This document shows positions 65-51,705 of a stretch of 64,000 nucleotides of DNA, piece by piece. The DNA lies in NCBI RefSeq assembly GCF_003018255.1, contig NZ_CP027440.1. One strand, given 5' to 3'. The DNA is from Escherichia coli. Lineage in GTDB: Bacteria; Pseudomonadota; Gammaproteobacteria; Enterobacterales; Enterobacteriaceae. Numbering within the stretch: position 1 is the stretch's first letter; each line of letters opens with the position of its first letter. Under the pieces are notes generated by a model. It made no database searches and was not told where the DNA came from. It saw nothing but the letters and a program-made list of their open reading frames with translations. The translations under genes and the position numbers were made by a program.

Positions 65-1051
65 GTGACCAGGACCAACCTCATCACCGGTTTTCTCGGC
101 AGCGGGAAAACTACGTCGATTCTTCATCTGTTAGCCCATAAAGATCCCAACGAAAAATGGGCGGTACTGGTTAATGAATTTGGGGAAGTCGGAATTGATG
201 GTGCTTTGCTCGCCGATAGCGGCGCATTGCTGAAAGAGATCCCCGGCGGCTGCATGTGCTGCGTTAATGGTTTACCCATGCAGGTAGGATTGAATACCTT
301 ACTGCGTCAGGGAAAACCAGACCGCTTGTTGATAGAGCCGACCGGACTGGGTCATCCGAAACAGATCCTCGATCTCTTAACCGCGCCCGTGTATGAACCG
401 TGGATAGATCTGCGCGCCACGTTGTGCATTCTCGATCCACGCCTGCTGCTGGACGAAAAAAGCGCCAGCAATGAAAACTTCCGTGACCAGCTGGCTGCCG
501 CAGACATTATTGTCGCCAATAAATCCGACCGTGCGACGCCCGAAAGTGAGCAAGCGCTACAGCGCTGGTGGCAGCAAAATGGTGGCGATCGGCAATTAAT
601 TCACAGCGAGCATGGGAAAATTGACGGTCATCTTCTGGATTTGCCGCGTCGCAATTTAGCCGAGTTGCCCGCCAGCGCCGCGCATTCTCATCAGCATGGC
701 GTGAAAAAAGGGTTAGCAGCGTTAAGCCTGCCAGAGCATCAACGCTGGCGTCGCAGTCTGAACAGCGGGCAAGGATATCAGGCCTGTGGCTGGATATTCG
801 ACGCTGATACGGTATTCGACACCATTGGCATTCTGGAATGGGCGCGACTTGCACCGGTGGAACGCGTCAAAGGCGTGATGCGTATTCCCGAAGGGCTGGT
901 GCGAATCAACCGTCAGGGCGATGACCTGCACATTGAAACGCAAAACGTTGCGCCACCGGACAGTCGTATTGAGCTGATTTCCAGCAGCGAAGCTGACTGG
1001 AATGCCTTGCAGAGCGCGCTGTTGAAGCTTCGTTTAGCGACCACCGCGTAA
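65..1051 (+). CDS. yeiR: CobW/COG0523-family zinc-associated GTPase
   Basis: ORF of 328 aa from a GTG start; P-loop GFLGSGKTT at N-terminus, Cys cluster GGCMCC, His-rich segment; length and sequence match E. coli YeiR as recalled. Confidence 0.9.
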   Translation: MTRTNLITGFLGSGKTTSILHLLAHKDPNEKWAVLVNEFGEVGIDGALLADSGALLKEIPGGCMCCVNGLPMQVGLNTLLRQGKPDRLLIEPTGLGHPKQILDLLTAPVYEPWIDLRATLCILDPRLLLDEKSASNENFRDQLAAADIIVANKSDRATPESEQALQRWWQQNGGDRQLIHSEHGKIDGHLLDLPRRNLAELPASAAHSHQHGVKKGLAALSLPEHQRWRRSLNSGQGYQACGWIFDADTVFDTIGILEWARLAPVERVKGVMRIPEGLVRINRQGDDLHIETQNVAPPDSRIELISSSEADWNALQSALLKLRLATTA

Positions 1052-1089
1052 GGTTGCCTGCGTTTTTCAGTAAGATAATTAGAGAAAAT

Positions 1090-1803
1090 ATGATTAAAAA
1101 TTTGCCGCAAATAGTGTTGTTGAATATTGTCGGCCTCGCGCTGTTTCTTTCCTGGTATATTCCCGTTAATCATGGATTCTGGTTGCCGATTGATGCGGAT
1201 ATTTTTTATTTTTTTAATCAGAAACTGGTCGAAAGTAAGGCCTTTTTGTGGCTGGTTGCATTGACCAACAATCGCGCTTTCGACGGTTGTTCACTGCTGG
1301 CGATGGGAATGTTGATGCTGAGTTTCTGGCTGAAAGAAAACGCCCCAGGCAGACGACGTATCGTGATTATTGGTCTGGTCATGCTATTAACTGCAGTGGT
1401 ATTAAACCAGCTGGGTCAGGCATTAATTCCTGTAAAACGGGCCAGCCCAACATTGACTTTTACCGATATTAACCGCGTCAGCGAACTGCTCTCTGTTCCC
1501 ACGAAAGATGCCTCACGAGATAGCTTTCCCGGCGATCACGGTATGATGCTGCTTATTTTTTCGGCATTCATGTGGCGTTATTTCGGCAAAGTTGCAGGCC
1601 TTATCGCCCTTATTATTTTTGTGGTTTTTGCGTTTCCCAGAGTAATGATTGGCGCACACTGGTTTACTGACATCATTGTCGGTTCGATGACCGTGATATT
1701 GATCGGTTTGCCCTGGGTGTTGCTGACGCCATTAAGTGATCGATTAATCACCTTTTTTGACAAATCACTACCGGGAAAAAACAAACATTTCCAAAACAAA
1801 TAA
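1090..1803 (+). CDS. lpxT: lipid A 1-diphosphate synthase / undecaprenyl-pyrophosphate phosphotransferase (PAP2 family)
   Basis: ORF track gives 1054-1803; internal ATG at 1090 (MIKNLPQ...) gives 237 aa, the recalled length of LpxT/YeiU; polytopic membrane protein with PAP2-like motifs (PGDHG, HWFTD). Confidence 0.85.
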   Translation: MIKNLPQIVLLNIVGLALFLSWYIPVNHGFWLPIDADIFYFFNQKLVESKAFLWLVALTNNRAFDGCSLLAMGMLMLSFWLKENAPGRRRIVIIGLVMLLTAVVLNQLGQALIPVKRASPTLTFTDINRVSELLSVPTKDASRDSFPGDHGMMLLIFSAFMWRYFGKVAGLIALIIFVVFAFPRVMIGAHWFTDIIVGSMTVILIGLPWVLLTPLSDRLITFFDKSLPGKNKHFQNK

Positions 1804-1817
1804 CTCACAGTAATTAA

Positions 1818-1860
1818 CATCATCAGGGTTATTTTTATAGTGAGGATAATCCTGATGATG
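1818..1860 (+). other. 15-bp stem / 13-nt loop hairpin just downstream of lpxT stop; the 3' arm covers a GAGGA Shine-Dalgarno-like motif and tandem ATG codons
   Basis: catcatcagggttat (1818-1832) pairs with ataatcctgatgatg (1846-1860) with one G-U wobble; no U-tract follows. Confidence 0.5.
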
Positions 1861-2214
1861 CGCACCGTGCTTTCATCCATCGCGCGCAAAAATCATTCTC
1901 TAAGTAAATGAATGGATTGCATGCGTTTCACTCAATCGTACTTTAATTGACCAATCCCGTTTATTAACTTTCTGTATCACTTTTTCTTATAAAGAATCAT
2001 GTAAAACCGCTCGCCAAGACCGCACCAATCGGGTAATCTCGAACTCGTTTTGCCTCGGCGGTAGATTATCCTCACAGCATATAATTTTGTGCGTTAGTCC
2101 ACAGATTTGGCCTTAAGGAATTGTTTCAACATGCCCAGGTAATTAGTCTCGTGTCGCTTGGCATTTTTTTATAACGATATTTGTCGTTAAGGACTTCAAG
2201 GGAAAACAAACAAC

Positions 2215-2781
2215 ATGGTCAAATCTCAACCGATTTTGAGATATATCTTGCGCGGGATCCCCGCGATTGCAGTAGCGGTTCTGCTTTCTGCATGTAGTGC
2301 AAATAACACCGCAAAGAATATGCATCCTGAGACACGTGCAGTGGGTAGTGAAACATCATCACTGCAAGCTTCTCAGGATGAATTTGAAAACCTGGTTCGT
2401 AATGTCGACGTAAAATCGCGAATTATGGATCAGTATGCTGACTGGAAAGGTGTACGCTATCGTCTGGGTGGCAGCACTAAAAAAGGCATCGATTGTTCTG
2501 GTTTCGTACAGCGTACATTCCGTGAGCAATTTGGCTTAGAACTTCCGCGTTCGACTTACGAACAGCAGGAAATGGGTAAATCTGTTTCCCGCAGTAATTT
2601 GCGTACGGGTGATTTAGTTCTGTTCCGTGCCGGTTCAACAGGACGCCATGTCGGTATTTATATCGGCAACAATCAGTTTGTCCATGCTTCCACCAGCAGT
2701 GGTGTTATTATTTCCAGCATGAATGAACCGTACTGGAAGAAGCGTTACAACGAAGCACGCCGGGTTCTCAGCCGCAGCTAA
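2215..2781 (+). CDS. mepS: NlpC/P60 murein DD-endopeptidase lipoprotein (Spr/MepS)
   Basis: 188 aa; lipoprotein signal (LLSAC), catalytic Cys in DCSGF, His in GRHVGIY; matches MepS length. Confidence 0.95.
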
Positions 2782-2828
2782 TAAACCGTTTGGATGCAAT
2801 CCCTTGGCTATCCTGACGAGTTAACTGA

Positions 2829-2859
2829 AAGCACTGCTTAGGCAGTGCTTTTTTGTTTT
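2829..2859 (+). terminator. rho-independent terminator of mepS
   Basis: aagcactgc / gcagtgctt stem with 4-nt loop followed by TTTTTTGTTTT. Confidence 0.75.
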
Positions 2860-2961
2860 CATTCATCAGAGAAAATGATGTTTCCGCGTCTTGATCCAGG
2901 CTATAGTCCGGTCATTGTTATCTTTTAAATGTTGTCGTAATTTCAGGAAATTAACGGAATC

Positions 2962-4518
2962 ATGTTCATACGCGCTCCCAATTCTGGACGTAAGCTCCTG
3001 CTTACCTGCATTGTTGCAGGCGTGATGATTGCGATACTGGTGAGCTGCCTTCAGTTTTTAGTGGCCTGGCATAAGCACGAAGTCAAATACGACACACTGA
3101 TTACCGACGTACAAAAGTATCTCGATACCTATTTTACCGACCTGAAATCCACTACTGACCGGCTCCAGCCGCTGACCTTAGATACCTGCCAGCAGGCTAA
3201 CCCCGAACTGACTGCCCGCGCGGCGTTTAGCATGAATGTCCGTACGTTTGTGCTGGTGAAAGATAAAAAAACATTCTGTTCATCTGCGACTGGTGAGATG
3301 GACATTCCACTAAAAGAATTGATTCCGGCGCTCGACATTAATAAAAATGTCGATATGGCGATCTTACCCGGTACGCCGATGGTGCCGAACAAACCCGCAA
3401 TCGTCATCTGGTATCGCAACCCGTTGTTGAAAAATAGTGGCGTGTTTGCCGCGCTGAATCTCAATCTGACGCCTTCTCTCTTTTATAGTTCACGGCAGGA
3501 AGATTACGATGGCGTCGCCCTCATTATTGGTAATACTGCGCTATCTACCTTTTCTTCACGTTTGATGAACGTTAATGAATTAACCGACATGCCGGTCCGT
3601 GAAACTAAAATTGCGGGCATTCCTCTGACCGTTCGGCTTTATGCAGATGACTGGACATGGAACGATGTGTGGTACGCATTTTTACTGGGTGGCATGAGTG
3701 GAACTTTCGTTGGACTTCTCTGCTATTACCTGATGAGTGTGCGTATGCGCCCAGGCAGAGAAATCATGACCGCCATCAAGCGCGAACAATTTTACGTGGT
3801 GTATCAACCGGTGGTGGATACACAAGCTTTGCGGGTAACGGGCCTGGAAGTACTGCTACGCTGGCGGCATCCAGTAGCAGGAGAAATCCCCCCGGATGCC
3901 TTCATTAACTTTGCCGAAGCGCAAAAGATGATTGTGCCACTGACTCAGCACCTGTTTGAGTTGATTGCCCGCGATGCCGCAGAATTAGAAAAAGTACTGC
4001 CGGTAGGCGTCAAATTTGGCATTAACATTGCGCCGGCCCACTTGCACAGCGAAAGCTTTAAAGCGGATATCCAGAAACTGCTCACTTCCCTGCCCGCACA
4101 CCATTTCCAGATTGTGCTGGAAATTACCGAGCGCGATATGCTGAAAGAGCGAGAAGCCACACAACTCTTCGCCTGGCTGCATTCGGTCGGCGTAGAAATT
4201 GCTATTGATGACTTCGGCACCGGGCACAGCGCGCTTATCTATCTTGAGCGTTTTACGCTCGATTATCTGAAAATTGATCGTGGATTTATCAACGCCATCG
4301 GTACGGAAACGATCACTTCACCCGTACTTGACGCGGTGCTGACGCTGGCGAAACGCCTCAATATGCTGACGGTTGCTGAAGGGGTCGAAACGCCAGAACA
4401 GGCACGATGGCTAAGCGAACGCGGCGTTAATTTCATGCAAGGCTACTGGATTAGTCGCCCGTTACCGCTGGACGATTTTGTTCGCTGGCTGAAGAAACCG
4501 TATACGCCGCAGTGGTAA
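2962..4518 (+). CDS. rtn: membrane-anchored EAL-domain c-di-GMP phosphodiesterase (Rtn/PdeN)
   Basis: 518 aa; N-terminal TM segment, CSS-type periplasmic region, EAL-like motif (EVLLRW) and downstream DDFGTG motif. Confidence 0.9.
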   Translation: MFIRAPNSGRKLLLTCIVAGVMIAILVSCLQFLVAWHKHEVKYDTLITDVQKYLDTYFTDLKSTTDRLQPLTLDTCQQANPELTARAAFSMNVRTFVLVKDKKTFCSSATGEMDIPLKELIPALDINKNVDMAILPGTPMVPNKPAIVIWYRNPLLKNSGVFAALNLNLTPSLFYSSRQEDYDGVALIIGNTALSTFSSRLMNVNELTDMPVRETKIAGIPLTVRLYADDWTWNDVWYAFLLGGMSGTFVGLLCYYLMSVRMRPGREIMTAIKREQFYVVYQPVVDTQALRVTGLEVLLRWRHPVAGEIPPDAFINFAEAQKMIVPLTQHLFELIARDAAELEKVLPVGVKFGINIAPAHLHSESFKADIQKLLTSLPAHHFQIVLEITERDMLKEREATQLFAWLHSVGVEIAIDDFGTGHSALIYLERFTLDYLKIDRGFINAIGTETITSPVLDAVLTLAKRLNMLTVAEGVETPEQARWLSERGVNFMQGYWISRPLPLDDFVRWLKKPYTPQW

Positions 4519-33461: not shown

Positions 33462-33592
33462 CTGCAACCGCCAGGTCGGATAAGGCGGTTACGCCGCATC
33501 CGACATCTAACGCCCGAGCCGGTTGCCTGATGCGACGCTGACGCGTCTTATCTGCATACGCCACATCCGGCATACCATGCCGGATGTGGCAC
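33462..33592. repeat. cluster of REP palindromes (BIME-like) between convergent eco and mqo
   Basis: gtcggataaggcg...cgccgcatccgac; tgcctgatgcgacgctgacgcgtcttatc; ccacatccggcat...atgccggatgtgg. Confidence 0.7.
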
Positions 33593-51664: not shown

Positions 51665-51705
51665 GCTATGCAGAAATTTGCACAGTGCGCAATTTTCTGC
51701 ATAGC
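51665..51705. promoter_or_regulatory. AtoC upstream activator site (40-bp palindrome)
   Basis: GCTATGCAGAAATTTGCACA / GTGCGCAATTTTCTGCATAGC inverted 20-mers about 100 bp upstream of the sigma-54 promoter. Confidence 0.7.

Follow-up and report, generated by a model that had tools for sequence, protein, structure and literature searches.

A conserved hairpin downstream of lpxT in Escherichia coli, probably the 3′-terminal stem-loop of the lpxT mRNA

A strong hairpin lies immediately after lpxT in the 64,000-nucleotide stretch of Escherichia coli DNA analysed here (hereafter the window), within an lpxT-mepS interval that carries no annotated feature in K-12, and it raises the question of whether such a structure belongs to the end of one gene, to the control of the next or to something encoded in between. 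An earlier note on this DNA, made from the letters alone, had offered three possibilities: a 3′ stabilising hairpin for lpxT, a protein-binding palindrome, or a structured element controlling either an 18-codon open reading frame (ORF) or a long mepS leader. Our analysis favors the first of these. On the strength of an inverted repeat, an RNA fold, orthologous hairpins with covariation and a mapped RNA 3′ end, we consider it likely that the lpxT mRNA ends in a stem-loop formed by positions 1818-1860 of the plus strand, a family-wide hairpin in its E. coli form. It is an ordinary feature of a known class that had previously gone unannotated.

Locus and structure of the hairpin

The gene order of the window, yeiR-lpxT-mepS-pdeN, was established from the ORFs and the K-12 MG1655 annotation, which place yeiR at 65-1051, lpxT at 1090-1803 on the plus strand (K-12 2268854-2269567), mepS at 2215-2781 and pdeN at 2962-4518; coordinates of K-12 MG1655 (NC_000913.3) equal the window position plus 2,267,764. 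The lpxT stop codon TAA, which marks the start of the lpxT 3′ UTR, occupies 1801-1803 on the plus strand, and the hairpin starts 14 nt past it. The hairpin segment was found in 5,425 complete E. coli genomes, and among the matches listed from these genomes no annotated feature lies beneath it. A repeated palindromic element of the REP/BIME, ERIC or MITE kind was rejected, as the segment occupies a median of one place per genome across the 5,425; the second places correspond to a copy split by an insertion sequence. The surrounding lpxT-mepS spacer (1801-2214) is strikingly uniform in length at about 415 bp, most of the 78 species, which represent many genera, falling at about 413-430 bp. Its sequence is very highly conserved over 1975-2214, the part containing the leader of mepS and its promoters P2 and P1. 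The motif AATTAAC at 1811-1817, between the lpxT stop and the hairpin, is kept from Escherichia to Enterobacter, Lelliottia and Klebsiella, the Klebsiella form being AATTAAT, and the bases flanking it vary.

The inverted repeat consists of two 15-nt arms, 1818-1832 (CATCATCAGGGTTAT) and 1846-1860 (ATAATCCTGATGATG), which are 93% complementary and are separated by 13 nt, with G1828·T1850, a G·U pair in the plus-strand RNA, as the sole non-Watson-Crick position. The inverted-repeat search thus confirmed the 15-bp stem with one G-U wobble and a 13-nt loop described previously. Repeats of this quality are scarce: with arms of 14 nt or longer and a complementarity of 90% or more, the 64-kb window contains only about five. 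Two other strong ones lie at 51665-51705 (20-nt arms, 90% complementarity, 1-nt spacer) and at 33560-33590 (perfect 14-nt arms, GCCACATCCGGCAT, 3-nt spacer).

When folded as RNA, the stem extends to 20 bp (1818-1837 paired with 1841-1860) around a 3-nt loop and is composed of 5 G-C, 11 A-U and 4 G·U pairs. The plus-strand hairpin alone reaches -23.7 kcal/mol, and the 121-nt region around it has a fold z-score of -4.4, none of 200 shuffles folding as well. The best minus-strand hairpin of E. coli reaches -16.2 kcal/mol, leaving the plus-strand RNA 7.5 kcal/mol more stable because of the 4 G·U pairs in the stem. The earlier statement that the 3′ arm covers a GAGGA motif (1842-1846) holds in part: the motif is paired, together with the start codons of the ORF, in the G·U-extended RNA stem, but in the strict 15-bp stem it falls mostly within the 13-nt loop. 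The sequence following the stem, CGCACCGT, contains a single T in 8 nt and no T-tract, as the earlier note had also observed, and a consensus terminator scan of the region did not call the E. coli lpxT hairpin.

The stem is not invariant within the species. Position 1828 is polymorphic, with G (forming G·U) in the window and K-12, T (a U·U mismatch) in strains G749, PS10-3 and two other Escherichia, C in E. coli 20A24 and A (a Watson-Crick pair) in E. albertii, and many E. coli strains are mismatched there. E. coli 20A24 (L082:2233-3000) additionally carries an IS1A element inside the 3′ arm, at the equivalent of window 1851/1852, with a GGATAATC target-site duplication that leaves the two arms about 0.77 kb apart; the hairpin is therefore dispensable in that one strain.

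Searches for a known RNA or protein at the locus were negative. An Rfam scan of 1000-3000 at E ≤ 10 returned noise only, the best overlapping match being a plant miRNA model that scored 15.7 bits (E = 6) where the gathering score is 70. PmrR is a small inhibitor of LpxT; it is not encoded here, no matching ORF being present on either strand, and the Citrobacter pmrR sequence is unrelated. A 103-aa TTG-start ORF on the minus strand (1578-1889), antisense to the lpxT 3′ end and running through the hairpin, is probably spurious.

Conservation of the hairpin and of the adjoining spacer in Enterobacteriaceae

A scan for LpxT in our genome collection yielded 80 loci, 78 of them with mepS downstream; with the window and K-12 added, the analysed set comprised 80 intergenic regions. 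Counting the best hairpin within 100 nt of the lpxT stop at -11 kcal/mol or stronger, a hairpin after lpxT is present in 76 of these 80 Enterobacteriaceae sequences, with a median start 20 nt past the first base of that codon. The core (CAT)CAGGGATCG-TTTT-CGATCCCTG(ATG) is common to most genera, and the Escherichia stem is lengthened by an apical insertion. Salmonella and Atlantibacter carry unrelated stem sequences at the same position, with the pairing kept. This observation is further strengthened by an alignment of 49 sequences, in which compensatory double changes occur at 7 of the 9 consensus pairs, paired cells amount to 91.5% compared with 77.9 ± 1.0% in shuffles (0/500 reaching 91.5%), and the covariation score is 0.363 compared with 0.137 in shuffles (0/500) and at most 0.109 in slid controls. 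The covariation analysis proposed in the earlier note accordingly finds the pairing maintained by compensatory changes across the Enterobacteriaceae.

The sequence directly 3′ of the stem differs between genera. In 13 of the 80 sequences at least 5 T occur in the 8 nt after the stem, which is the architecture of a canonical intrinsic terminator; these belong to Klebsiella, Raoultella, Atlantibacter, Pseudenterobacter and some Enterobacter and Lelliottia, and their stems are shorter (median 10 versus 13 bp, Mann-Whitney p = 0.002). Escherichia, Citrobacter and Salmonella have a longer stem without a T-tract, and on this sequence comparison the group has either lost the T-tract at the lpxT hairpin or never had one. 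The 13 loci with T-tracts make the E. coli element homologous to bona fide lpxT terminators. A family-wide comparison of the best hairpin per strand favors the plus strand at 44 loci against 30 (p = 0.07); a previous asymmetry test (50 versus 12) was discarded as biased, the hairpins having been picked on the plus strand. Given this weak strand advantage, covariation by itself does not tell an RNA hairpin from a palindrome in DNA. An RNA hairpin is indicated jointly by the T-tracts in relatives, the replacement of the stem in two genera and a mapped RNA end.

Beyond the hairpin, the spacers of many relatives contain a Pho-box-like direct repeat (consensus CTGTCAT-N4-CTGTCAT; PMC3465305, PMC3511308) on the mepS-ward strand, 71-85 nt past the lpxT stop. 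It is present with at most 3 mismatches in 14 bases in 49 of the 80 sequences, among them Citrobacter, Enterobacter, Lelliottia, Kosakonia, Klebsiella and others (for example L009:3289-3306); 10 sequences match perfectly, and only 2.3% of shuffled spacers do as well. A -10-like NAWAAT hexamer stands 12 nt past the site in 28 of the 49. All Escherichia spacers have 5-7 mismatches to the Pho box, which is chance level, and the decayed site (window 1861-1900) falls in the same hypervariable stretch that gives rise to the 18-codon ORF. These patterns suggest that relatives have a putative PhoB-activated promoter about 300 nt before mepS, which Escherichia may have lost, and the silence of an E. 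coli PhoB ChIP-chip paper on lpxT and mepS is consistent with such a loss. A block conserved across the family, ATCATTCTCTAAGTAAATGAATGGATTGC (window 1895-1925), contains around 1904-1920 (GTAAATGAATGGATTGC) what would be the -10 and start region of this putative promoter, the -10-like hexamer reading TAAAAT in relatives and GTAAAT in the window. An ATG at 1908, overlapping the TGA of the 18-codon ORF (ATGA), opens a 12-codon ORF, MNGLHAFHSIVL. This candidate small ORF (MNGLHAF…) was rejected, since its length ranges from 2 to 53 codons in relatives, and the conservation therefore fits a -10/start region better than a coding sequence.

The RNA 3′ end at the hairpin and the mepS promoters downstream

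The check by 3′-end mapping that had been proposed for this hairpin finds an answer in published Term-seq data, which place an RNA end at the structure. Supplementary file 1 of Adams et al. 2021 (eLife, PMC7815308) lists a plus-strand 3′ end at K-12 2269627 with a score of 1323.37 and the class 'orphan'. This position, window 1863, is 3 nt past the last base of the stem and gives the steady-state lpxT RNA 3′ end; the flanking sequence, ATTAACATCATCAGGGTTATTTTTATAGTGAGGATAATCCTGATGATGCGC|ACCGTGCTTT, is identical to the window, and the register was checked on the mepS terminator entry (2270620, window 2856). In the same table the mepS terminator end lies 8 nt past its stem, inside a T-run. The label 'orphan' is explained by the distance of 60 nt from the lpxT stop, which exceeds the study's 50-nt rule for 'primary' ends. 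The peak at 1863 is weak, with a score of 1323 compared with about 10,000 for mepS (about 8-fold lower), and it appears in one of three condition lists, apparently that of LB at OD 0.4. Further plus-strand 3′ ends of these tables fall 4-6 nt before the mepS ATG (2269973 and 2269975; window 2209-2211), immediately 3′ of the site in the mepS ribosome-binding region at which OxyS has been reported to pair, and within mepS at +157 (K-12 2270136, window 2372).

How the end arises can be proposed from its position and from the composition of the spacer. RNA polymerase would transcribe past the hairpin, and termination or RNA cleavage would take place farther downstream, likeliest through Rho acting on an untranslated C-rich, G-poor stretch of the plus strand at 1920-2030. 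Across this candidate Rho-loading or termination zone, 60-nt windows have C/G ratios of 2.0-3.5 and only 4-7 G, and directly 3′ of the stem the ratio is 1.1-1.7. The supplementary tables of Adams et al. available to us list no Rho termination region at 22695xx-22699xx, an absence of little weight given the poor expression of lpxT and the low sensitivity. Exonucleases of 3′→5′ polarity would then trim the transcript back to the stable stem, leaving the end 3 nt past it; trimming is the most likely route because the stem has no U-tract and the end stands at +3 rather than at about +8. The stem would thereby define and stabilise the lpxT 3′ end and may set lpxT transcription apart from the mepS promoters about 190-300 nt downstream.

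Those promoters have been mapped by others. Mendoza-Vargas et al. 2009 reported a start of spr (mepS) at -169, preceded by the -35 element CGCTCGCCA and the -10 element GGTAATCT, which corresponds to window 2046. Elgrably-Weiss et al. 2024 described two mepS promoters, P2 giving a long mRNA and P1 a short one, with the OxyS site at G146-156 of the long and G37-47 of the short transcript. As C(-18) of that study corresponds to window 2197, this numbering puts P1 at about 2155 (about -60). The Cappable-seq supplements contain no entries in the lpxT-mepS interval. At least 186 nt separate the hairpin from the nearest mapped mepS start, and with both starts (2046 and about 2155) downstream of it the suggestion that it controls a long mepS leader does not hold.

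Alternative readings and comparison with known 3′ ends

A tempting alternative is a translational switch, in which the stem would hide the GAGGA motif together with both start codons of a genuine 18-codon gene for a small protein or leader peptide. The arrangement invites it, for the ORF does open, as claimed earlier, on two tandem ATGs (1855-1860, within the 3′ arm) and translates as MMRTVLSSIARKNHSLSK over 1855-1911 of the plus strand, GAGGA stands 8 nt before the ATG at 1855 with both paired in the extended stem, and its stop shares an ATGA (1908-1911) with a further ATG. The frame is not maintained, however: it has 18 codons in the window and in K-12 (which differ by A10E), 17 in Escherichia sp. 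MOD1 (MMRAVAFIHQTQKSFPK, frameshifted after codon 5), 12 in E. albertii, 9 in a divergent E. coli-labelled genome (L002) and 3-22 codons of unrelated sequence in other genera. Four E. coli strains differ by T4L, V5L, A10E and R11S plus one synonymous change, so the polymorphisms are mostly non-synonymous, and they fall in the least conserved and most variable part of the spacer (1861-1890). GAGGA belongs to the E. coli-specific apical insert and is absent from E. albertii, ATGATG is dictated by its pairing with the conserved CATCAT of the 5′ arm, and only three codons of the ORF precede the RNA end mapped at 1863. The ribosome-profiling small-ORF table of Stringer et al. does not list the ORF, the peptide is absent from the portion of the supplements available to us of the 'Cryptic Bacterial Microproteome', a survey of Enterobacteriaceae intergenic small ORFs, and an exact-sequence look-up of its 23-aa GTG-start version in a protein collection gave no match. 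A masked or controlled small ORF is accordingly very improbable, and the 18-codon ORF is most likely not a gene but, like GAGGA, an incidental product of the stem sequence. The earlier note had itself stated that 3′ ends at the hairpin together with an unconserved ORF would reduce the element to a plain 3′ stem-loop, and this is essentially what was found.

The remaining explanations turn on what the paired sequence does as DNA or as a stop for RNA polymerase. An operator bound as duplex DNA by a dimeric regulator, with an overlapping promoter TTAACA-16-TATAGT (1814-1841) firing into the spacer or towards mepS, could account for the perfect palindrome ATCAGGGATCG-N4-CGATCCCTGAT seen in many genera, for the AATTAAC conserved across genera just before the stem, which supplies the -35-like TTAACA, and for the 10/12 sigma-70-like match inside the hairpin; the covariation fits a palindrome equally, and the family-wide strand asymmetry is weak. 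Against this, the wholesale replacement of the stem by unrelated sequences in Salmonella and Atlantibacter, with pairing kept, would not be tolerable to a sequence-specific DNA-binding protein and speaks against the protein-binding palindrome proposed earlier, and the T-tracts after the stem in 13 loci and the RNA 3′ end at the stem base point to RNA. As for the promoter inside the hairpin, it was rejected: a single such match falls short of the chance expectation of 1.9 ± 1.3 per 900 bp, TATAGT belongs to the loop peculiar to E. coli and is unconserved even in E. albertii, and the mapped mepS promoters are elsewhere. An operator is thus quite unlikely. A working or conditional (attenuator) terminator that lacks a U-tract and sets read-through towards mepS is an explanation to which we give a modest, though still small, chance. 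It would agree with the orthology to canonical intrinsic terminators in other genera, with the precise 3′ end and with the lack of a reported Rho region here, but a single T stands among the 8 nt past the stem, the end lies at +3 compared with the +7 to +9 typical of intrinsic terminators and the +8 of mepS, and no anti-terminator pairing is seen in the fold. A hairpin lacking a U-tract is generally a poor stop for E. coli RNA polymerase, which also counts against this explanation. That the repeat is a functionless product of chance is hardly credible; its AU-rich stem (5 G-C in 20 bp), the polymorphism at 1828 and the tolerated IS1 insertion would fit, but the z-score of -4.4 with 0/200 shuffles folding as well, the hairpin at 76 of 80 loci with covariation and the RNA end mapped there do not.

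The 3′-terminal stem-loop of the lpxT mRNA is therefore the reading we prefer, and among the proposals of the earlier note the 3′ stabilising hairpin is the one supported, by the Term-seq end and by a conserved hairpin that is a canonical terminator in some relatives. Two elaborations were also considered, to which we jointly assign a slender probability. In one, the leaky hairpin would act as a conditional barrier instead of a passive cap, lpxT transcripts that read through would include the spacer, and ribosomes loading on the tandem ATGs when the stem breathes would modulate Rho access; if this were true, lipid A phosphorylation (lpxT) would be coupled to expression of a peptidoglycan endopeptidase (mepS). 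In the other, the orthologous site would have switched between intrinsic and Rho-dependent or processed 3′ ends within one family.

Under the preferred reading, a published 'orphan' Term-seq 3′ end is now assigned to lpxT, a tempting but spurious small ORF is removed, and the mepS leader is shown not to reach the hairpin. The importance is slight beyond correct annotation. The lpxT hairpin orthologues do form a natural series for the interconversion of intrinsic terminators and stem-loops without a T-tract, which is of mild evolutionary interest.

Comparison with known systems places the element most closely beside the stem-loops described by Dar and Sorek 2018 (PMC6061677), who reported precise E. 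coli 3′ ends just past stable stem-loops without U-tracts, the stem-loops shielding from PNPase and RNase II and rut sites lying downstream. The lpxT hairpin resembles this class in its precise steady-state 3′ end directly 3′ of a stable stem-loop, in the absence of both a U-rich tail and an upstream A-tract, in the excess of C over G downstream, which is mild to clear, and in its position in an untranslated spacer past a stop codon. It differs from the class in its unusually long (20 bp), AU- and G·U-rich stem and in its orthology to true intrinsic terminators in other genera, and its Rho dependence and trimming are here proposed by inference. With hairpin-masked starts of small ORFs or leader peptides it shares an SD-like motif and ATGs within a strong stem, but the ORF, SD and frame are unconserved, the ORF is cut short by the mapped 3′ end, and no mapped transcript places it ahead of a gene. 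With a canonical intrinsic terminator such as that of mepS (window 2832-2856) it shares a position directly after the gene, and its orthologues in Klebsiella, Raoultella, Atlantibacter and some Enterobacter and Lelliottia have the full canonical stem and T-tract, whereas the E. coli lpxT hairpin is set apart by one T in 8 nt, an end at +3 and 5 G-C pairs.
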